A DNA stretch of 64,000 nt from Candidatus Levybacteria bacterium RIFCSPHIGHO2_01_FULL_37_17 (GCA_001782035.1 MFNL01000001.1:212648-276647), one strand, 5' to 3'; positions 21,793-58,364 are shown, counted from the stretch's first letter. The notes: a model not told the origin generated them from the letters alone. Numbers and translations are program-made.

Positions 21793-22881
21793 ATGGCAAG
21801 GACAAAGAAATCTTCATCAAACGGAGAAGTAGTTAAACAAGCTACAGCGCAATCTTCCGGAAAATTAGAAGCAGTAAAGCTTGCAATGGAGCAAATTGAA
21901 AAACAATACGGTCGCGGCTCCATTATGCGCTTTGGTGAAATAGGCCAAAAGCTGGATGTTTCGGTTATCTCCACAGGCTGTCTTCCTTTAGACTTAGCAC
22001 TCGGCGTAGGAGGAGTGCCAAGGGGTAGAATAATTGAAATTTACGGTCCCGAGGCTTCCGGCAAAACCACAGTTTGCTTATCAATTATTGCCCAAGCCCA
22101 AAAGCACGGAGGAGTTGCAGCATTTATAGACGCAGAACATGCGCTCGACCCATTGTGGGCTGAGCGAATCGGAGTAAAACTGGACGATTTGCTAATTTCT
22201 CAACCGGATACCGGTGAGCAGGCTTTGGAAATTGCAGAAAGTTTAATTAGAAGCGGAGGCGTTGATGTTCTCGTCATCGATTCAGTAGCAGCACTTGTGC
22301 CAAGGGCTGAAATTGAGGGTGAAATGGGGGACGCAGTAATGGGACTTCAGGCAAGACTAATGTCGCAGGCTTTAAGGAAATTAACTGCTGTAATTTCTAA
22401 AAGTAAAACCGTAGTTATATTTACAAATCAGCTAAGGCAAAAAATCGGGATAATGTTTGGAAACCCTGAAACAACCACCGGAGGGCTGGCTCTTAAATTC
22501 TATTCGTCTGTTAGAATCGACGTTAGAAAAATTGAAACCTTAAAAGAAGGCGACAAAGTATATGGAAGTAGACACAGAGCAAAGATTGTAAAAAATAAAG
22601 TTTCCTCTCCTTTTAGAATTGCAGAGTTTGATGTAATGGGAGACAGCGGAATTTCCAGAGAAGGGGGCATTATGGATGTTGGAGTTGAAATGGAAGTAAT
22701 TGGAAAGAGTGGTGCTTTTTTTAGATACGGCGAGACGATGATTGGACAAGGCAAACAAGCAGCAGTAATGTATTTGAAAGAAAAACCGGAAATGGCAAGA
22801 AAAATAGTCGATGAAATAATGGCAAAATCTAAGAGAACTCCAGGAAGAGTAGAAGTAGGAAAAGAAGAAGAGAAAGAATAA
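21793..22881 (+). CDS. recA: recombinase RecA
   Basis: The Walker [10 protein letters not shown] is present, with ..[11 protein letters not shown].. and the L2 loop. The full-length product is 362 aa. Confidence 0.95.
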
Positions 22882-22896
22882 CCCCTTATTCATTAA

Positions 22897-23394
22897 ATGG
22901 ATAACTTTGCTAAACTGCTAAACAAGGCCTACAGATTTTTGTCATACAGGCCGCGTAGCGTTAAAGAAGTTGAGGACTATCTTCTAAAGAAATCCTCTTT
23001 CGCTAAAGCTTCAGAGGGACAAGAAAAGCAAGAAATTGAGAAGCTCATAGATTCAATAATAAACAAACTAAAAGAGCAAAAGTTTTTAAACGATTTTGAG
23101 TTTGCAAAATGGTGGATAGAATCTCGGGCTAAATTTAAACCAAGAGCTCTAAAAATTATTAAGTTGGAGCTAAGGCAAAAAGGTATTGATAAGGAATTAA
23201 TAGAACAAGTTTTAGAACAAGGTGAAGAACTCAAGAGCGATTTTGATCAAGCCCTAGATTTGGCAAAGCACAAAGCCTTGCGCTTTAAAAATCTGGAGCA
23301 TAGAAAGGCGTATGAAAAAATGGGTAGATTTCTTGCAAGTAAAGGTTTTGAATGGGACACGATTAAAAAAGTCATTGACCAAGTTTTAAAGTAG
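22897..23394 (+). CDS. recX: RecA regulator RecX
   Basis: A helical repeat protein lies immediately downstream of recA (..AYRFLSYRPRS..E...L..). Confidence 0.7.
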   Translation: MDNFAKLLNKAYRFLSYRPRSVKEVEDYLLKKSSFAKASEGQEKQEIEKLIDSIINKLKEQKFLNDFEFAKWWIESRAKFKPRALKIIKLELRQKGIDKELIEQVLEQGEELKSDFDQALDLAKHKALRFKNLEHRKAYEKMGRFLASKGFEWDTIKKVIDQVLK

Positions 23395-25148: not shown

Positions 25149-26198
25149 ATGATGTCGCTTCGTCTTAAGTTTTTATTTTTTTTAGCCGTAGGCGTTTTAT
25201 TTATTTGGTTTCTTTATATTCAAAGAGAAATAATAACCCCTTTTATTTTTGCAGCAATTTTTGCCTATGTTTTTAATCCGTTAGTAAATTTTCTTCACAA
25301 ACAGGTAAAAATACCTAGAACCTTGTCCGTAATAGTTATATATTCAATTATTATTGCGGCAATTGTAGGAAGCGGTGTTCTTATTTCTAAAAGAGTAATT
25401 GATGAGTCTGTTGCGCTTCACAGCCATGTCACTCAGTTTGCCCAAAGCGTAGAAAGTCAAATTAACACTCTTCCTGAATTTATTAGACCAACTGTTAAAG
25501 ATAGCGTATCTACAATTACAAACTTCAATAAGTTTATTTTTCCATCTCTATATACTTTTATTCCACAGGCCTTTAGTAGACTTATTGCTTTCGCACTTTT
25601 CCTTTTTGCAGCTTTTTATTTCTTAAAAGAGGGAAACAGCATGTATAACAGATTTTTAAATTGGATTCCTAATCGTTATAAACTCGAAACCGAAATTCTT
25701 CTTAAAAAAATAAATGTAGTACTGGGCGGATATTTGCGCGGAATTATATTTTTGGTAATTCTTGTGTCCTTTGTTCTCTTTGTTAGCCTTTCGGTTGTCG
25801 GAGTAAAATACGCCTTAATTCTTGCAATCTTCTCCGGTTTTGCAGAAATAGTTCCCATAATAGGTCCTATTTTGGCAACAGCAATCGTCGCATCTGTTGC
25901 ATATATTTCAGGAAGTAACCATTTCGGATGGGATCCCTTAACCACAGCGCTTGTTGTAGTTTTAATTTATTTTGTTGTAAGACAAGTCCAGGATTATTTT
26001 GTCAATCCGCAGGTTTTTGGAAGAGTTACAAAACTTCATCCTCTTGTTATACTTTTTGCAGTTTTAGCAGGCGAACATACTGCGGGAATAACAGGATTAC
26101 TTTTGGCAGTTCCAATAGCAGGTGTAATAAAAGTAATTTTTGAATATACCTTTGATTTTATTAGCGACAAGGAAATAGAGGAAAAATATAAAAAATAG
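25149..26198 (+). CDS. AI-2E family transporter (UPF0118/PerM-like)
   Basis: The product has eight TM segments and a topology and sequence typical of AI-2E (..ILATAIVASVAYISGS.., ..LLLAVPIAGVIKVIFEY..). Confidence 0.7.
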   Translation: MMSLRLKFLFFLAVGVLFIWFLYIQREIITPFIFAAIFAYVFNPLVNFLHKQVKIPRTLSVIVIYSIIIAAIVGSGVLISKRVIDESVALHSHVTQFAQSVESQINTLPEFIRPTVKDSVSTITNFNKFIFPSLYTFIPQAFSRLIAFALFLFAAFYFLKEGNSMYNRFLNWIPNRYKLETEILLKKINVVLGGYLRGIIFLVILVSFVLFVSLSVVGVKYALILAIFSGFAEIVPIIGPILATAIVASVAYISGSNHFGWDPLTTALVVVLIYFVVRQVQDYFVNPQVFGRVTKLHPLVILFAVLAGEHTAGITGLLLAVPIAGVIKVIFEYTFDFISDKEIEEKYKK

Positions 26199-26558
26199 TT
26201 CTTTGGAAGATAGTAAGCCAGATTCTGTTTTCAATTGCAATCTATCTCAAAATGATGTTTAAATCTCACTTTGCCCAGGTTTTGCCTGGATGCCCTAACT
26301 TTGATGCTGGGTATTGCACGTTGTCGCATCGTTCGTAGGTTACAGCAGGTAGGATTGCCCGTTTCACTCCCACTCGTCTCTGTTGCTCTCAGATTATGTT
26401 AATTCACAATCTGCTCCAAAACCATATGTGGGTAAAATTTTGGATACCAGCGCTTTCGCGTCGGAGCTTACGCCCCAGTCCTTGCAATACTGCTGTCTGG
26501 ACTTTCCTCCCGCTCACATTTTTCAACATGAGGGGTAGCAATTCATCTTCCAAAGAAC
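26198..26558 (-). ncRNA. rnpB: RNase P RNA (bacterial type A-like)
   Basis: The minus-strand transcript carries P1 pairing GUUCUUUGGAAGA (5') / UCUUCCAAAGAAC (3'). The P4 strand is GGGAGGAAAGUCCAGAC. GNRA loops are present (CGCGAAAGCG) along with GAGUGAAACGGG and the conserved 3' ACAGAAUCUGGCUUA. The region is GC-rich and has no plausible ORF. Confidence 0.8.
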
Positions 26559-26603: not shown

Positions 26604-29474
26604 TCAATTATAAGCAGAGCAGAGCATCTTAAACTCGCAGGTTTTGCATATAATATTTCCGCTGCATTTAAAGTCGCTTTTTTCTATTTCTTCTATTTTT
26701 GCAATGAGCTCATCTTCCAAAACGTCTAAGTTCTTTTTTTCAAACTCTAATGATTTTTTGGTGTTTGCTTCTAAAAAGTACAAGGTTAAAATAATATCTT
26801 TCGGGTTTTTGCCCGCAAGGAGATCTTTAACTCTTGTAGCCGCAAGAGCATAAATGGCAAGTTGAAGTTGATGAGCTTTATCTGCTTTAGGATTATCAAT
26901 TCCGGTTTTGTAGTCGATAATCTCAATGCCATCTCCTCTGGGATCGATTCTGTCAATTTTACCAAACACTTTCACGCCGTTTTTAAGGACAAAATTGAAA
27001 GGCTGCTCAATTGCAAGAGGCTTGATAAAAGGACTACCTTCAGACTTATAAAACGCATCAATCATCTTTTGGGCTTGCGAAAACCTTTCTAGCTCGTGCT
27101 TTTTGCTATCGTAGCCTTCTTTTTCCCAGTTTTCTTCTAAAAGTTTTCCAAGTCGACCAAAAGTTGGTTTTTGATCCTCAATTATTAATTTATAAAATTC
27201 ATAAAACGTTTTGTGCATTGAAATTCCGAAAGATAAAACACCGGACTGCGGGGTAGGTAAGCTAAGAATAGCCTTGGCTTTATAATGAAGCGGGCAAATA
27301 TCAAACATTTGCAAATTGGAGTATGTGATATAGTCAATTTTAAGGGGCAATTTTTTTTGGCTTTTTTCTTCAACATTTTGATAAGGTGCAAGTACTTCAA
27401 GAAGCGACATCTGTTGGTTTTTTTCCAGTACTACCTCGTACTTTTTTAAGTCGGGGAGTGCTTCATAAACAAAGGGGGATAATTTTTTTTGTCTTTTCCC
27501 TGCTCCGTAATAATCTGCAGCTGTAAAATAAAGCTTTTCTTTAGCCCTTGTCATTCCAACATAAAAAAGCCTCCTTTCTTCCTCCAGGTGAAAATCCGTC
27601 ACAGCAGGAAGTTTTTCTTTAATTAATGCTTCCGGAAGGGGTATTTTGTCGGAGCGTTCCCTAGTAGGAAAACGGTCTGTTACGAGATTTGCTAAAAATA
27701 CAACTGGGAATTCAAGTCCCTTGCTTGAGTGAATCGTAAGAATGTTTACAGCGTTTGTCTCTCTTAAATCTATATCTGCCGCCAAAGGGCTGTCTCCCAT
27801 TTGCATCATTAAAGTAAGCCATTCCACCAGTGTAAAAATATTTGCATCTGAGCGTTCGGTTTCAAAATTTTTTATTCTGTCAAAAAACTTTGCAATATTT
27901 TGCACTCTTTTTTCGTCTTGCACCGATTCCGTATTTTGAAGGCTGTCATATATTTTTGTTTCCACCAAAAAATCGTATAAAAGCTGTCCGGCTTGATCTT
28001 TTCTACTTCTTCGCAAATGCTCTTCGACCATCTCCTTGAAATTTTTAAAAGTAATGACTGTTTTATCGCTTAAAAATTGTAAATTGGATTGGCTTATTGC
28101 TTCGAAAAGACTAAAGTTTCTTTTCTTTGCATAATTTAAAATATAGTTTAGCTCAACGTAAGATATCCCAAAAATTTCCATTGACAAAACCCTAAACAGA
28201 GAAACAGAATCTGAAAGATTAGTTAAAAACGTTAAATAAGCAATTAAGTCTTTAATCTCTTCTTGCTGGAAGAGATAACCGGGCCCCAAAAATTGAAAGG
28301 GAATTCTGTTTCTAAATAGTGCAGCCGTAATGGTTGAAGAATGGCTGTTTGCCCTAAGAAGAATTGCGATGTCTCTGTAGCTGTACCCCTCTTTTATTAG
28401 TGTTTTAACAGTTTGGGTGATTTTGTCGGCTTCATCCTCGGATCTAGGTTCATGAAGTAAATTTATTTTTTCATTTTTTTTGTCCGAGTGGCTCTTGAGT
28501 CTTTTTACAATATTTTCTACGACTTCTAGTCTATTAGGATTATTATTCTGTATAAGTTTGTATGAGGCATCCAAAATTTCCTGAGTTGACCTGTAATTAT
28601 CTGTAAGAGTAACAATTTTTGTTTTTGGAAAATTTTTTTTAAACTGCAATACGTTTGACACCGCGGCACCCCTGAATCTATATATAGACTGGTCGTCATC
28701 CGCTACTACATTGATATTTTCATCATCACCCGCAAGAAGAATAGCTAATTCATTCTGGGCATAGTTTGTATCTTGGAATTCATCAACAAGTATATACTTA
28801 AATTGGTTTTGATAGGTTTTTAAAACATGCGGCCTAATTCTAAAAAGAAGAAGCGTATTTGAAATTAAATCCGCAAAATCCATTATAGAGTGTTTGGTTT
28901 TCAACTCTTCGTATTTTAGAAAAGAATTTGCAAGTTCTAGGTATTGGGCATTTTCTCCCATCTTTTTTTGTTTTTTTGCCCATCCTAAGTACTGACTTGG
29001 ACTTATGTCTTCATCTTTTAGTCTTGAAAAATGTGTAAGAAGCGCTTCTAAAAATTTATTAGGATTTCCAAGAGGGCGAAATATTTGCAGTCCCAAATCA
29101 AATATATTTTGCCTTAAAAGTAAAATGGATTCGGACTCTGAAATTAACTTATAATTTGGATCAAGACCAATTAAATGTGCTTCGTTTCTCAAAATCCTGT
29201 CACAAAACGAATGGAAAGTATGAATCCAAAGGTTGGTATAGCCGTAGGGAAGCAAAACATCAACTCTGTCCTGCATTTGATGAGCTGCTTTTTCCGTAAA
29301 GGTCAAAGCTAATATTTGATCGGGTGAGGTATTCCTGTCAACTATTAAATGATTTATCCTTTGCGTAATAACTGTAGTTTTTCCCGTTCCTGCTCCCGCG
29401 ATTATTAAAAGAGGTCCACTGCCATGTTTTACAGCTTCAAGCTGATTTTTATCCAAACTAAGGCTATCGTTCAT
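26604..29474 (-). CDS. UvrD/PcrA-type SF1 helicase fused to a C-terminal PD-(D/E)xK nuclease with Cas4/AddB-like Fe-S cysteines
   Basis: The N-terminus has Walker A AGAGTGKTTV and UvrD motifs (DEFQDTN, ..YRSTQEIL..). The C-terminus has ..ICPLHY.., GKIDRID, EIIDYKTG, QLAIYA and C-x5-C-x2-C-x5-C (CSGNIICKTCEFKMLC). Confidence 0.8.
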   Translation of the reverse strand: MNDSLSLDKNQLEAVKHGSGPLLIIAGAGTGKTTVITQRINHLIVDRNTSPDQILALTFTEKAAHQMQDRVDVLLPYGYTNLWIHTFHSFCDRILRNEAHLIGLDPNYKLISESESILLLRQNIFDLGLQIFRPLGNPNKFLEALLTHFSRLKDEDISPSQYLGWAKKQKKMGENAQYLELANSFLKYEELKTKHSIMDFADLISNTLLLFRIRPHVLKTYQNQFKYILVDEFQDTNYAQNELAILLAGDDENINVVADDDQSIYRFRGAAVSNVLQFKKNFPKTKIVTLTDNYRSTQEILDASYKLIQNNNPNRLEVVENIVKRLKSHSDKKNEKINLLHEPRSEDEADKITQTVKTLIKEGYSYRDIAILLRANSHSSTITAALFRNRIPFQFLGPGYLFQQEEIKDLIAYLTFLTNLSDSVSLFRVLSMEIFGISYVELNYILNYAKKRNFSLFEAISQSNLQFLSDKTVITFKNFKEMVEEHLRRSRKDQAGQLLYDFLVETKIYDSLQNTESVQDEKRVQNIAKFFDRIKNFETERSDANIFTLVEWLTLMMQMGDSPLAADIDLRETNAVNILTIHSSKGLEFPVVFLANLVTDRFPTRERSDKIPLPEALIKEKLPAVTDFHLEEERRLFYVGMTRAKEKLYFTAADYYGAGKRQKKLSPFVYEALPDLKKYEVVLEKNQQMSLLEVLAPYQNVEEKSQKKLPLKIDYITYSNLQMFDICPLHYKAKAILSLPTPQSGVLSFGISMHKTFYEFYKLIIEDQKPTFGRLGKLLEENWEKEGYDSKKHELERFSQAQKMIDAFYKSEGSPFIKPLAIEQPFNFVLKNGVKVFGKIDRIDPRGDGIEIIDYKTGIDNPKADKAHQLQLAIYALAATRVKDLLAGKNPKDIILTLYFLEANTKKSLEFEKKNLDVLEDELIAKIEEIEKSDFKCSGNIICKTCEFKMLCSAYN

Positions 29475-29506: not shown

Positions 29507-29926
29507 TTATTTTACCATTACAGTACCTGTTTGCTCCGGATGCAAGTGATTGTGATAAGCGTAAGTTCCCGCCTTATCAAATACTACGGAAACAGTCGTG
29601 CCGTTATCAAAATTGCCCAAATTTAGGAAAGGAAATCTTAAATGAGTAGGATGGTTATCCGAGCTGACATTTGTAACCTCTCCGCTACTGTTTGTCCAAA
29701 CTACGTTCGTATCTACTGAGACAGTTAAGGATTGTGGCTCAAAACCGGTTGCCGTAACATTAACGGATGCTTCTTTATTTTGTTCTTCGGTCTGTGTTTG
29801 TGCTTGCGTCGGATTTGGATTTTGGGTTCCTGCTTGATTTGTTGACTTATTGGACAAAAGTAAATAACCAGCAACTAATACTACTAAAACGACTGCACCC
29901 AACATTAATAGTCTTGTGTTATTCAT
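29507..29926 (-). CDS. membrane-anchored cupredoxin-like domain protein (Cys-less, His-rich)
   Basis: An N-terminal TM helix is followed by a Gln/Thr-rich linker. The beta-sandwich sequence ..FEPQSLTVSVDTNVVWTN.. ends ..AGTYAYHNHLHPEQTGTVMV, which resembles the plastocyanin/amicyanin C-terminus without the Cys ligand. Confidence 0.4.
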   Translation of the reverse strand: MNNTRLLMLGAVVLVVLVAGYLLLSNKSTNQAGTQNPNPTQAQTQTEEQNKEASVNVTATGFEPQSLTVSVDTNVVWTNSSGEVTNVSSDNHPTHLRFPFLNLGNFDNGTTVSVVFDKAGTYAYHNHLHPEQTGTVMVK

Positions 29927-30917
29927 TTATTTCACCTCCTTTCGAAAGTTTTTCTTGGTTTTCTTTTTCTAAAGATTTAGTTGTATCAAGCTTGCTCCCC
30001 ATTTTCTCAAAAGAGGAGGATACGTTTGTAAATTGAGAAGAAGCATTTGTAATGTGCCTTCCTAAAACCGAAAGTCCGTTATTTACTTTCTGATAGTCTA
30101 CTTTAAGCGCTCTAAGAAGTGCAAATACCTCTTTTGATCTTGTTTCTATCTTCTTTCCTTCAAAAGAGAGAAGTATCATTTGAAGATGCGCATAGAGCGT
30201 TGTAGGTGAGACCACATATACTCTTTGACTTCTTGCATACCCCATTAGTTCTGTCATATCTGCCACTTCGTAAAAAACAGTTTCAGAAGGAATATACATA
30301 AAGCAAAAATCCATTGTTCCTTCTTCGGGCAAAATATATTTTTTTGCAATAGCGTCAATATGTTTTTTAACGTCTTTCACAAAGTCCTTTTTAAAAACAT
30401 CTTTTTCCTCCTTTTGTGTCGCTTTGATCATTTTTTGGAAATTTTCCATAGGGAATTTTGAGTCAATTGGCAAAATTCCGGCGTCTGTTTTTAGCGCCGC
30501 ATCCACCCTATCTCCTGTTTTAAATTGGTATTGTAAGTGGAAGCTGTTTTTCGGAAAAACCTGGGAGATTAAGTCTTTTAAAACTTCCTCTCCGATATTG
30601 CCTCGGAGCTTTGGGCTTTTTAAAAAATCCTGAAGTTCTCTCATATTTCTTCCTATTTCGCTCATTTCCCCAATGCCTTTATTGACGTCACGTATTGCAA
30701 TGGCTGCTTTATCAAGCCTGTCGTTTAGTTGGGCCGAATTTGCCTGCAGTGTTTTAACCATGCTTGAGCTTGTTGAGTCAAGAGAATTTTGCATAGTTTT
30801 GAGCCATTCGATAAGGGTTGTCTCTGCGGAATTTTTGGACTTTCGAAGTTGCACGAATAGGATTAAAGAAAAGCCCAAAATCAAAATTGCAACGATTATT
30901 ATGTTATCTATTTGCAT
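29919..30917 (-). CDS. rmuC: DNA recombination protein RmuC
   Basis: An N-terminal TM helix and coiled coil precede the RmuC C-terminal domain (..ILPIDSKFPMENF.., ..DFCFMYIPSE..). Confidence 0.7.
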   Translation of the reverse strand: MQIDNIIIVAILILGFSLILFVQLRKSKNSAETTLIEWLKTMQNSLDSTSSSMVKTLQANSAQLNDRLDKAAIAIRDVNKGIGEMSEIGRNMRELQDFLKSPKLRGNIGEEVLKDLISQVFPKNSFHLQYQFKTGDRVDAALKTDAGILPIDSKFPMENFQKMIKATQKEEKDVFKKDFVKDVKKHIDAIAKKYILPEEGTMDFCFMYIPSETVFYEVADMTELMGYARSQRVYVVSPTTLYAHLQMILLSFEGKKIETRSKEVFALLRALKVDYQKVNNGLSVLGRHITNASSQFTNVSSSFEKMGSKLDTTKSLEKENQEKLSKGGEINE

Positions 30918-30944: not shown

Positions 30945-31955
30945 TTAGTCAAAATAAAGCTCCGGGTTTGCCTGTATTTTATCCCAACTAGTTTCTTTGC
31001 CAATGAGTGTGGCTGCTGCACCAATCATAGCTGCGTTGTCTGTGCACAGCTGCTTTTCGGGTACGAGAAGCGGAATTTTTAATTTCAAACTTCTAATTTC
31101 TAATTCAAACTTATCACGGAGAGTTTGATTTGCGGCAACACCTCCGCCAAGAAGAATGGACTTTGCGCCAAATTCTTTAGTAGCTTTTAAAGTTTTAGTA
31201 ACTAAGACATCCACAATTGCAGTCTGTACAGAAGCAGATATATTTTCAAGGTTCGGAGCCCTGCCAGCAGAATCCATTTTTTGAACTTCCCTAAAAACGG
31301 CTGTTTTTAAACCGCTGAAACTGAAATCATAATCAGCGGAATGCATTAAGGGTCTTGGAAATTTAAAAATATCTTTTCCCTTTTTTGCCAACTCTTCAAT
31401 TTTTGGTCCTGCTGGATAAGGAAGCCCTAGAAGCCTTCCGGTTTTATCTAAAGCCTCTCCGGCAGCATCGTCTCTTGTACCACCAAGCCACTTTAAACTT
31501 TTGCTGCCTTTCATCAATACAAGGTCGGTATGTCCTCCTGAAACAACAAGGGCAATTGCGGGAAACTCAATATCCCGCTTTTCTATAAAATTGGCATAAA
31601 TATGGCCGAACAAATGATTGACAGGAATAATTGGCTTTTTCCAAGCATATGCATATGCTTTTACTGTTTCAACTCCTACCAGAAGGGAGCCGATTAAGCC
31701 GGGACCAACAGTTACTGCCAGTTTGTCGATGTTGTTTTGTGAGGACTTAGATTCTTCGAGTGCTTGCTTTATAACTGGAATAATATATTTTAGCTGTTCT
31801 CTTGCAGCAGCTTCAGGTATTACTCCGCCTGTTTTGCTATGAAGCGGAAGCGAAGTTGCAACAACGTTAGATAATAATCTTAGTGTCACTCCTTCGGCTT
31901 CTATTACCGAAGCTCCCGTTTCATCGCAGCTTGTCTCAACAGCAAGGATTCTCAT
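30945..31955 (-). CDS. tsaD: tRNA N6-adenosine threonylcarbamoyltransferase TsaD (Kae1/Gcp)
   Basis: The sequence MRILAVETSCDETGASV.. and the His-His metal site ..HLFGHIY.. match the ASKHA fold. Confidence 0.9.
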   Translation of the reverse strand: MRILAVETSCDETGASVIEAEGVTLRLLSNVVATSLPLHSKTGGVIPEAAAREQLKYIIPVIKQALEESKSSQNNIDKLAVTVGPGLIGSLLVGVETVKAYAYAWKKPIIPVNHLFGHIYANFIEKRDIEFPAIALVVSGGHTDLVLMKGSKSLKWLGGTRDDAAGEALDKTGRLLGLPYPAGPKIEELAKKGKDIFKFPRPLMHSADYDFSFSGLKTAVFREVQKMDSAGRAPNLENISASVQTAIVDVLVTKTLKATKEFGAKSILLGGGVAANQTLRDKFELEIRSLKLKIPLLVPEKQLCTDNAAMIGAAATLIGKETSWDKIQANPELYFD

Positions 31956-57075: not shown

Positions 57076-57472
57076 ACAAACAAAAGAACTTGGGAAGGAA
57101 TTAGCAAAAACATTAAAAAAAGGCGATATCATATGTCTGTATGGTAATCTTGGAAGCGGGAAAACCTCTTTTGCCCAGGGCTTAGCAGAGGGCTTAGGGA
57201 TTGAAAGAAGGATAATCTCTCCGACTTTTATAATTATTAGAAGCTACAAAACAAAAAACGTCAAATTTTACCATATAGATTTATATAGAACATCAACCAA
57301 AAATGATTTGATTTCACTAGGTATTGACCAACTTTTAAAAAGTAGCGATGCAATTTTAACAATTGAATGGGCTGAGAAACTTAATAAATTCTTGCCAAAA
57401 AAAAGAATTGATCTACACTTTAAACAGACAGATGATAATAGCCGGGAAATAACTAAAAATAAATATGACTAG
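57038..57472 (+). CDS. tsaE: tRNA threonylcarbamoyladenosine biosynthesis protein TsaE (YjeE)
   Basis: The P-loop reads ..ICLYGNLGSGKTSFAQG.. and ..SPTF.I...Y.. is present. Confidence 0.75.
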   Translation: MTKMDKIVTQTVEQTKELGKELAKTLKKGDIICLYGNLGSGKTSFAQGLAEGLGIERRIISPTFIIIRSYKTKNVKFYHIDLYRTSTKNDLISLGIDQLLKSSDAILTIEWAEKLNKFLPKKRIDLHFKQTDDNSREITKNKYD

Positions 57473-58364
57473 CCAGGTTGATAAAGCTGTTTCTGTTTTA
57501 AATAAGGGTGGAATAATAATTTTTCCAACCGACACTGCATTTGGAATAGGATGCAGGATTGACAAGGCAGAGTCAGTTGAAAGACTTTTTGAGATTAGAA
57601 AAAGGCCAAAAAATCAAGCGACCCCCGTACTTGTATCATCCATTGTAATGGCGAGAAATTACTTTTTAGAGATTCCTAAAGAGGTTGAACACAAGTTAGT
57701 GGAAAAATATTGGCCCGGTGCACTTACAATTGTTCTTCCTGCAAAAACTAAGAAAGTGCCCGAGCTTGTTCGAGGCATGCAGAAGAGTGTTGGAATCAGG
57801 GTACCGAATAATCCAACAATTCTTGAAATAATAAAAAAGACAGGAGTACCCATCCTTGGTCCCTCGGCAAACATGCACGGGGAAAATACTCCATTTAAGC
57901 TAGAAGATTTAGATAAAGAGTTAGTAAGTAAGGTGGATTTTGTTGTTAAAGGTGAAGTGGCACTCAAAAATATTTCAACAGTGATAGATTGTTCGGTAAA
58001 GCCTTGGAAAATATTGAGGCAAGGCGCGATAAAAATTTCTGACACTGTAAAAAATATTCTTTTTATTGATACTTCTGATAACCAAAAAATCGAATTAGGA
58101 TTAGTAATTGAAGCTAAAAAATATAAAGAGATTGTTTCACTGACAGCTTTAAAAAGAGAGATAGTATTAAATCTAATTGATAAGATTATTGCAAAGCACA
58201 ACTTAAATTTAAAAGAAATAACAGAAATAAAGGTAAATAATGGCCCTGGTTCTTTTACGGGTCTTAGGGCGGGAATTTCTATTGCAAATGCTTTAGCAAG
58301 TATTTTAAATATACCTATAAATGGTAAAAAGATTGGAGATTTGGAAAATGCCGTATATAATTAA
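57465..58364 (+). CDS. fusion protein: TsaC/Sua5/YrdC domain (N-terminal) + TsaB/YeaZ-like domain (C-terminal)
   Basis: The N-terminus has ..VLNKGGIIIFPTDTAFGIGC.., ..YWPGALTIVL.. and ..GIRVPN.. (YrdC). The C-terminus has ..LFIDTSDNQKIELGLV.. and ..GPGSFTGLRAGISIANALA.. (TsaB). Confidence 0.65.
   Translation: MTSQVDKAVSVLNKGGIIIFPTDTAFGIGCRIDKAESVERLFEIRKRPKNQATPVLVSSIVMARNYFLEIPKEVEHKLVEKYWPGALTIVLPAKTKKVPELVRGMQKSVGIRVPNNPTILEIIKKTGVPILGPSANMHGENTPFKLEDLDKELVSKVDFVVKGEVALKNISTVIDCSVKPWKILRQGAIKISDTVKNILFIDTSDNQKIELGLVIEAKKYKEIVSLTALKREIVLNLIDKIIAKHNLNLKEITEIKVNNGPGSFTGLRAGISIANALASILNIPINGKKIGDLENAVYN

Follow-up and report, generated by a model that had tools for sequence, protein, structure and literature searches.

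A UvrD-like helicase fused to a Cas4-like iron-sulfur nuclease and encoded near rmuC in Levybacteria: a candidate single-chain DNA-end resection enzyme

The locus studied here raises the question of what a single protein that joins a UvrD-like helicase to a Cas4-like nuclease is for in a bacterium from the Candidate Phyla Radiation (CPR, or Patescibacteria). The gene lies at positions 26604..29474 of a 64,000-nucleotide stretch from Candidatus Levybacteria bacterium RIFCSPHIGHO2_01_FULL_37_17 (MFNL01000001.1:212648-276647), referred to below as the 64-kb window, and had been singled out in an earlier note made from the sequence alone. Our analysis suggests, with moderate confidence, that its 956-amino-acid product is a single-chain enzyme for DNA-end resection or degradation that serves recombinational repair as a housekeeping function in Microgenomates-type CPR bacteria. 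We favor this reading because of the anatomy of the motor and the nuclease, the behavior of the gene as a core gene, its pairing with rmuC, the proximity of recA and recX in this lineage, and the reported lack of RecBCD in Roizmanbacteria and perhaps in the CPR.

The open reading frame and its two catalytic modules

The gene is one intact minus-strand open reading frame (ORF) that starts with ATG and ends with TGA; the plus-strand frame is full of stops. The product is 100% identical to ‘hypothetical protein A2798_01410’ of a Candidatus Levybacteria metagenome-assembled genome (MAG). The earlier note had given the length and position of the ORF without its strand, and every motif that it quoted was found in the translated protein; all features of the protein given below are on the minus strand. 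Hidden Markov model searches against Pfam matched residues 7-283 to UvrD-helicase (PF00580, E 3.8e-75, 253.5 bits vs a cutoff of 23), residues 289-653 to UvrD_C (PF13361, E 1.1e-61, 209.7 bits vs 25.6) and residues 716-952 to PDDEXK_1 (PF12705, E 3.6e-32, 112.7 bits vs 22), in agreement with the proposal that a full superfamily 1A (SF1A) UvrD/PcrA motor and a C-terminal nuclease share one polypeptide. The note had also named the Cas4 model as a check on the nuclease; PDDEXK_1 was matched, but Cas_Cas4 (PF01930) scored 21.4 bits, slightly under its cutoff of 22.7. The SF1A UvrD/PcrA-type motor thus spans residues 7-655 (27510..29456) and the PD-(D/E)xK iron-sulfur (Fe-S) type nuclease domain spans residues 716-956 (26607..27329), the two being separated by a poorly conserved linker or tether at residues 656-715 (27330..27509), for which model confidence was low.

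Conservation was assessed in a divergent set of 131 nuclease domains, 27-65% identical, and in an ortholog set of 75 full-length proteins from species-representative genomes. Helicase motifs Q, I, Ia, II, III, IV, V and VI are all intact, with key residues kept in 73-75 of the 75 orthologs. Motif I, or Walker A, reads AGAGTGKT (residues 26-33, 29376..29399), and its G29, K32 and T33 were kept in 73 of 75 orthologs, the other two having gaps; motif II, or Walker B, reads ILVDEFQDTN (residues 228-237, 28764..28793), with D231 in 75/75 and E232 in 74/75. Motif III, NVVADDDQSIYRFRGA (residues 255-270, 28665..28712), carries an aromatic residue at position 267 that is Phe in 44 orthologs and Trp in 31. 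By its position, F267 may be equivalent to the ratchet pawl, a concept that comes from AdnB Trp325 and RecB Phe422 (PMC13000450). Motif V, NILTIHSSKGLEFPVVFL (residues 577-594, 27693..27746), retains H582, G586 and E588, and motif VI, EERRLFYVGMTRAKEKLY (residues 632-649, 27528..27581), retains R635, T642 and R643, each in all 75 orthologs.

The catalytic core of the nuclease, GKIDRIDPRGDGIEIIDYKTG (26901..26963), includes the GKIDRID and EIIDYKTG motifs at residues 838-858 and supplies D841, E851, D854 and K856, each present in 75/75 orthologs. Among the divergent homologs, D841, D854 and K856 were found in 131/131 and E851 in 117/131. The QxxxY motif QLAIY (Q871 and Y875; residues 871-875, 26850..26864) is conserved in both sets, in which H754, E823, D841, D854, K856, Q871 and Y875 are near-invariant. 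Since the Walker A and B residues, motifs III to VI, the nuclease residues and four cysteines are kept in 73-75 of 75 orthologs, both the motor and the nuclease activity are evidently maintained by selection. The median identity to orthologs was 57% in the motor, 42% in the nuclease and lowest, at 36%, in the linker of about 60 residues.

The cysteines of the nuclease domain follow the same pattern. The N-terminal predicted Fe-S ligand is C727 (27294..27296), in the motif DICPLHY (ICPLHY at residues 726-731), and the C-terminal predicted ligands C943, C946 and C952 form the CxxCx5C motif CKTCEFKMLC (26619..26648) within CSGNIICKTCEFKMLCSAYN (residues 937-956). All four are present in 75/75 orthologs; among the divergent homologs C727, C943 and C946 were found in 131/131 and C952 in 130/131, contrary to the loss of conservation that the note had named as grounds for rejecting its assignment. 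The note had described an Fe-S-type four-cysteine motif, but the cysteines it listed numbered five. All five are invariant among 120 close homologs. The fifth, C937 (26664..26666), lies six residues ahead of CxxCx5C, and in the divergent set it is replaced by Pro in 60 and Ala in 33 of the 131 homologs, with Cys in 32, whereas within the Microgenomates clade it is Cys in 73/75. Because C937 varies in the divergent set, we take the conserved ligand set to be the canonical four-cysteine C-x(n)-C-x2-C-x5-C, with C937 a clade-specific residue outside it. C937 could be an alternative ligand or redox-related.

In a sequence search with the isolated nuclease domain, the closest solved structure was AdnA of the mycobacterial AdnAB complex. 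The nuclease profile matched AdnA over the whole domain (E 6e-13), pairing tCPlhY with DCPLRW and CkfCeykllC with CANCPVRSSC, so that the four cysteines align. D854 aligns with AdnA D934, the residue that was mutated to inactivate the AdnA nuclease (PMC13000450). A full-length AlphaFold model was of low quality, with a predicted local distance difference test (pLDDT) of 70.8 and a predicted template modeling score (pTM) of 0.46; pLDDT was below 50 in the Fe-S regions and at residues 654-661, 685-696 and 698-710. A domain-only model of the nuclease, built from an alignment of 53 sequences of 30-65% identity, reached a pLDDT of 92.1 and a pTM of 0.86. Foldseek comparison of this model with the PDB again ranked AdnA first (E 6e-10, template modeling score 0.65-0.69), followed by ACE1, an Argonaute-associated Cas4-family protein, AddB (4ceh_B, E 1.4e-7), Dna2, Exo5 and Cas4 SSO0001, with AddA and RecB lower. 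This ranking, together with the four-cysteine alignment to AdnA, supports the placement of the nuclease in the Fe-S-bearing PD-(D/E)xK subclass and not with the RecB/AddA type, as the note had proposed in calling it Cas4/AddB-type. Cas4-family members bind [4Fe-4S] or [2Fe-2S] clusters (PMC5704561).

Distribution and kinship of the fusion

More than 120 clusters of proteins of about 953 amino acids share at least 68% identity and the same Pfam architecture. An exhaustive search with the nuclease domain only gave 3,644 cluster representatives at E <=1e-3, of which 83 reached E <=1e-30; among the best matches, the full-length proteins have 900-1,060 amino acids and carry the domain at the extreme C-terminus. 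We scanned one genome per GTDB species with an alignment of nine closer sequences as the query, and confirmed at least 500 loci; the counts of loci given below, for the fusion and for its neighbors, refer to the best 80 of these. All 80 are from Patescibacteria, chiefly Levy-, Woese-, Gottesman-, Roizman-, Ames- and Beckwithbacteria, and the nuclease and the UvrD motor share one ORF in 79 of them, the exception being truncated by a contig end. A separate stand-alone nuclease architecture was considered and rejected, as the short ‘nuclease-only’ entries were fragments or frame-broken genes in the same context. Nuclease domains are at least 36% identical within the CPR clade and at most 28% identical to plasmid and phage relatives. 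In Microgenomates-type CPR bacteria the fusion appears to be a highly conserved housekeeping gene of near-universal occurrence, which seems not to have been reported in the literature we searched.

Two further observations were made on the family at large. Seven cluster representatives (P0142, P0143, P0198, P0234, P0171, P0206 and P0208; 554-1,297 amino acids) gave two to five tandem Fe-S nuclease matches, which recalls ZomB, described below. Many species-representative MAGs titled ‘uncultured Gammaproteobacteria bacterium’ (third-party annotation entries; loci L007, L014, L016, L017, L020, L022, L025 and others) carry the CPR-specific order tsaD-rmuC-helicase-nuclease-HU-RNaseY-recX-recA, and their titles look like a placeholder or a wrong taxonomy.

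Family proteins are currently labeled ‘hypothetical’, ‘ATP-dependent helicase’ or ‘PcrA’. An alternative reading is that the fusion is the general-purpose UvrD/PcrA of its lineage and not a dedicated resection enzyme. It would then act in nucleotide excision repair and mismatch strand removal, in clearing RecA filaments and in replication-transcription conflicts, with the nuclease merely accessory. The motor is indeed closest to PcrA, Rep and UvrD, with NCBIfam scores of 490, 415 and 383-395 bits, respectively, vs 218 for AddA, 164 for RecB and 30.6 for addB_alphas; its closest solved structure is PcrA (1pjr, E 7.8e-101), and the Joint Genome Institute (JGI) labels members ‘DNA helicase II / PcrA’. 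However, these scores are far under the equivalog cutoffs (911 for pcrA, 951 for rep, 965-1144 for uvrD, 708 for addA, 486 for addB_alphas and 696 for recB), which is why we regard the protein as a UvrD-family helicase that is the ortholog of no named enzyme. In Pfam terms the nuclease also stands in the place of the PcrA/UvrD C-terminal region, a region with a role in RNA polymerase binding.

The neighboring genes divide on the same question. No second UvrD-like gene was found within 10 kb at Levybacteria-type loci, as a generalist role would lead one to expect, yet 33 of the 80 loci, of Woese-, Gottesman-, Ames- and Beckwithbacteria type, carry a separate plain UvrD-like helicase of about 625 amino acids without a nuclease, convergent and 2-3 kb downstream. 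This helicase, which the sources label PcrA, usually follows FemAB-family genes (for example at L032:13163-15040 on the minus strand, and at L020, L026, L036, L041 and L047). Because it is only 32% identical to the fusion motor, we regard the two as distinct, co-existing paralogs that share one neighborhood, an arrangement in the sister lineages that also appears unreported in the literature searched. A profile search for the plain PcrA-like helicase gave, among its best 120 matches, only Woesebacteria, other Microgenomates or unlabeled sequences, none of them labeled Levybacteria. Taking both sides together, we consider a generalist role fairly unlikely.

As for relatives outside the CPR, the architecture is already known, and the novelty that the earlier note implied does not hold: it occurs in the UvrD-Cas4-like fusions (PMC5704561), in ZomB (PMC9453066) and in AdnA (PMC13000450). 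Within pfam12705 the UvrD-Cas4-like fusions make up the largest branch; their helicase moiety was described as monophyletic, and the nuclease was predicted to act in a RecB/AddB-like way (Hudaiberdiev et al. 2017, PMC5704561). Like the window protein, they join in one chain a UvrD-like SF1 helicase, at the N-terminus, to a PDDEXK_1 Cas4-like Fe-S nuclease at the C-terminus, and plasmid members are colinear with it from end to end, the C...CxxCx5C pattern included (Methanomethylovorans, 30% identity, E 2e-109; Enterococcus, 25%, E 7e-70). We judged kinship with this branch by architecture and by pairwise identity, which is 25-30% with the plasmid fusions; with the plain CPR helicase it is 32%. 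The reported fusions occur in Type III restriction-modification and Dcm-Vsr contexts, or stand alone or in non-conserved contexts, and a defense or ancillary role was suggested for them (PMC5704561). The window protein differs in its housekeeping synteny with rmuC, a pairing that is not mentioned there, and the Type III restriction-modification and Dcm-Vsr contexts were not found around it.

AdnA of AdnAB (PDB 6PPJ, 6PPU, 7SJR and 9NP6) likewise joins a UvrD-like module to an Fe-S nuclease in the same domain order, and its nuclease acts at the fork to cut the displaced 5’ strand during resection of double-strand breaks (DSBs) (PMC13000450). Unlike the window protein, AdnA works only with AdnB; its motor-like domain is without demonstrated activity, and AdnB drives translocation (PMC13000450). 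The window protein has a PcrA-like motor with all motifs conserved and no adjacent partner gene, and does not answer to the description of an AdnAB-type heterodimer. It might still be one subunit of an AddAB/AdnAB-type two-subunit machine whose partner is encoded elsewhere, given that its nuclease is most like that of AdnA, that its motor is nearer to AdnB (E 1.6e-40) than to AdnA (E 1.8e-13), and that the characterized bacterial end-resection enzymes are all multi-subunit (PMC5314763). Against this, no second motor-nuclease gene was found within 10 kb at any of the 80 loci, and the plain helicase present in some lineages has no nuclease and is convergent, not co-oriented. The addA/addB and adnA/adnB pairs are normally adjacent genes. 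A split machine is, in our judgment, highly improbable.

ZomB, encoded on ICESp23FST81 of S. pneumoniae, is also a single-chain UvrD-like helicase with a Cas4-like Fe-S module, and ATP-dependent nuclease activity was shown for it (PMC9453066). It has two Cas4-like domains, resides on a mobile element and is tied to pneumolysin regulation (PMC9453066), whereas the window protein carries a single nuclease domain and is encoded by a chromosomal core gene; the likeness between them was drawn from the published description only. AddAB and RecBCD share with the window protein an SF1 helicase-like module and a C-terminal PD-(D/E)xK nuclease per chain, and the AddB nuclease is of the same Fe-S type, but the window protein fell under the AddA, AddB and RecB equivalog cutoffs.

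Other candidates were rejected. In Dna2 the nuclease is N-terminal to an SF1B 5’-to-3’ helicase, so that both the domain order and the motor type differ from those of the window protein. Cas4 proper was rejected on scores (the Pfam result above, and TIGR00372 at 29 vs 65) and because the 64-kb window contains no cas genes; Cas4 and ACE1 are, unlike the window protein, stand-alone nucleases tied to CRISPR or Argonaute.

Neighborhood and the rmuC pairing

The helicase-nuclease gene is the last of a tight minus-strand run that consists of a vanW-like gene, a cytidylyltransferase gene, a DUF192 gene, tsaD, rmuC, a cupredoxin-like ORF and the fusion itself. The product of rmuC (29919..30917, minus strand; Pfam RmuC E 2.8e-52) is predicted to be a PD-(D/E)xK nuclease anchored in the membrane, and a hydrophobic helix lies at its N-terminus. 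The pairing that the earlier note had seen as a direct one is widespread and the one constant of the neighborhood: in 64 of the 70 loci with enough upstream sequence, rmuC lies upstream in the same orientation, at a distance of 1 kb or less in 47 loci and of 100 bp or less, or overlapping, in 17. In the window the two genes are close neighbors, separated by the small cupredoxin-like ORF. We found no paper on the CPR protein or on an rmuC/UvrD-Cas4 linkage in the literature searched, and this conserved, operon-like link appears unreported.

On the other side of the fusion, and convergent with it, lie recA (21793-22881) and recX (22897-23394), which together span 21793..23394 on the plus strand (Pfam RecA E 9e-129, and RecX domains), about 3.2 kb from the 3’ end of the helicase gene. 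There are two context types among the 80 loci. In the Levybacteria type, the convergent genes for HU and RNase Y and recX and recA follow downstream, with recA-recX 3-5 kb off. In the other, that of Woese-, Gottesmanbacteria and related loci, the plain UvrD-like helicase described above comes next, 2-3 kb away.

The membrane anchor predicted for RmuC admits a reading in which RmuC and the helicase-nuclease process imported or scavenged DNA, degrading or trimming DNA taken up from host or surroundings for transformation or nucleotide salvage, in organisms that lack de novo nucleotide synthesis. The conservation of the gene pair in CPR bacteria and the transmembrane helix at the N-terminus of RmuC would fit it, as would the reduced genomes and host dependence of the CPR. 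The CPR has also been linked to nucleotide auxotrophy and competence. However, no competence genes are adjacent, and a repair role fits the same features equally well; this reading is speculative, and we hold it to be very unlikely.

A defense role, which the earlier note had offered as an alternative, would make the fusion and RmuC a nuclease-helicase system directed against phage or plasmid DNA, like the plasmid UvrD-Cas4 proteins with Type III restriction-modification, or like Shield. Besides the Type III restriction-modification and Dcm-Vsr contexts and the defense roles proposed for the wider family (PMC5704561), the colinear relatives at 25-30% identity have a methyltransferase and a TnsA-like endonuclease as neighbors on Enterococcus plasmids, and on an archaeal plasmid CRISPR genes are close by. 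RmuC domains mediate phage defense in Shield and degrade DNA in vitro (PMC10270631), and PADLOC returned matches to its GajB, reverse transcriptase (RT)-associated helicase and RT-associated RmuC models. The PADLOC helicase matches are to the generic UvrD motor only, though, and the RmuC match (1.6e-14) is far weaker than that to Pfam RmuC. The two RT-associated models, for the helicase and for RmuC, come from separate systems (UG35 and UG2) and so give no support for a shared one.

The content of the 64-kb window and the conservation of the gene speak against a defense role. The window encodes a ribosomal-protein operon, secY, rpoA, recA, recX, RNase Y, HU, tsaD and secA, together with three aminoacyl-tRNA synthetases, release factor 2 (RF2), ftsEX, sua5 and rhamnose biosynthesis, and within it we found no other end-resection genes and no restriction-modification, CRISPR/cas or other defense genes, with methyltransferase, GajA, reverse transcriptase and Shield accessory genes all absent. 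Gabija (GajB), the helicase and RmuC associated with defense-associated reverse transcriptases (DRT), and Shield were accordingly rejected as identities for the locus, their partner genes being absent from the window. Stable synteny with tsaD, HU, RNase Y, recX and recA, together with conservation of the protein at 68% identity or more over more than 120 clusters, is what a vertically inherited core gene would show, and not a defense island. The whole window and its conserved synteny are of a housekeeping kind, and we regard a defense role as unlikely.

Several features of the surrounding DNA were recorded in addition. The cupredoxin-like ORF (29507..29926, minus strand; 139 amino acids with a hydrophobic N-terminus; Pfam Cupredoxin_1 E 2.7e-7) separates rmuC from the helicase gene and shares 8 nt with the 3’ end of rmuC. 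It was found in 14 of the 80 loci, all Levybacteria-type, an odd insertion within a pair of DNA-metabolism genes, and it is probably outside the function of the helicase-nuclease. A divergent bacterial RNase P RNA (26198-26554, minus strand) lies in the 405-bp ‘intergenic’ gap that comes directly downstream of the helicase gene, and matches the full Rfam RF00010 model, positions 1-367, at E 2.1e-15. With 52.8 bits it stays under the gathering score (100) and so escapes a default Rfam scan. The strand that carries the RNase P RNA also has, at 26593-26565, a promoter-like site that reads TTGAAA-17-TAGAAT, with a TG upstream of it. The Sua5/YrdC ORF (57465-58364, plus strand) matches the TsaD family in part, at its C-terminus (residues 231-285, E 2.9e-12), which suggests an unusual fusion or extension in the threonylcarbamoyladenosine (t6A) pathway; a full tsaD is present separately at 30945-31955.

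Proposed mechanism and its significance

The mechanism that we infer for the resection enzyme, from translocation polarity, substrate and Fe-S occupancy to oligomeric state, cooperation with RmuC and cellular role, would start with ATP hydrolysis by the N-terminal SF1A motor, which would travel 3’-to-5’ along one strand and unwind the duplex from an end or a nick. The C-terminal Cas4/AdnA-type nuclease, held on a flexible linker of about 60 residues and presumably stabilized by an Fe-S cluster on C727/C943/C946/C952, would thread and cut the single-stranded DNA made by the motor. The net output would be end resection or degradation that yields single-stranded DNA for RecA, a task of AdnAB, AddAB or RecBCD elsewhere that one chain might perform here. 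The protein may form a homo-oligomer, so that both strands are cut, and we would expect a homodimer with two nucleases to mimic the AdnAB heterodimer. UvrD-family enzymes generally unwind only as dimers (PMC11912403). The enzyme may also act jointly with the presumably co-transcribed and membrane-anchored nuclease RmuC.

The view of the protein as a minimal substitute for AddAB/RecBCD in a reduced genome, which the earlier note had raised, is plausible. Roizmanbacteria lack RecBCD, and the paper that reports this relays the suggestion that the CPR may lack it (PMC6509639). A bolder proposal is that RmuC and the single-chain helicase/Fe-S nuclease make up an unrecognized two-gene module for DNA-end processing, with one partner membrane-anchored, that is the principal DSB-resection or DNA-processing machinery of Microgenomates-type CPR bacteria and replaces RecBCD, AddAB and AdnAB. 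We put this forward tentatively, as possible but doubtful.

A number of points weigh against assigning the fusion to resection. The proximity of recA is confined to Levybacteria-type loci, and the downstream genes of Woese- and Gottesmanbacteria-type loci differ. What RmuC itself does is ill defined, and phage defense makes use of RmuC domains (PMC10270631). Relatives from the fusion family are found on plasmids in restriction-modification or defense-like contexts (also PMC5704561). The canonical complexes may be absent, and the literature on their absence covers recBCD only, and some CPR bacteria only. The full-length model is poor (pTM 0.46), for which reason it does not show where the nuclease sits with respect to the motor exit and so which strand is cut. 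The Fe-S cluster on the four cysteines, whether [4Fe-4S] or [2Fe-2S], is a prediction.

In all, the finding is a modest one, a known architecture with a new and testable gene linkage to rmuC. A better label for these proteins would be UvrD-like helicase / Cas4-like Fe-S nuclease fusion, which would set them apart from the true PcrA found alongside them in sister lineages. If the resection reading is true, the combination of an active SF1A motor and an AdnA-type Fe-S nuclease in one chain would offer a minimal model for the coupling of unwinding to cleavage, in contrast to the characterized bacterial DSB resection machines RecBCD, AddAB and AdnAB, which are all multi-subunit. It would also help to explain how RecA is supplied with DNA in genome-reduced CPR bacteria reported to be without RecBCD. 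The tight and widespread linkage with rmuC provides a testable lead to the housekeeping function of RmuC, which is undefined 25 years after its discovery, and if the two-gene module is real, this long-enigmatic protein would gain a defined biochemical partner.

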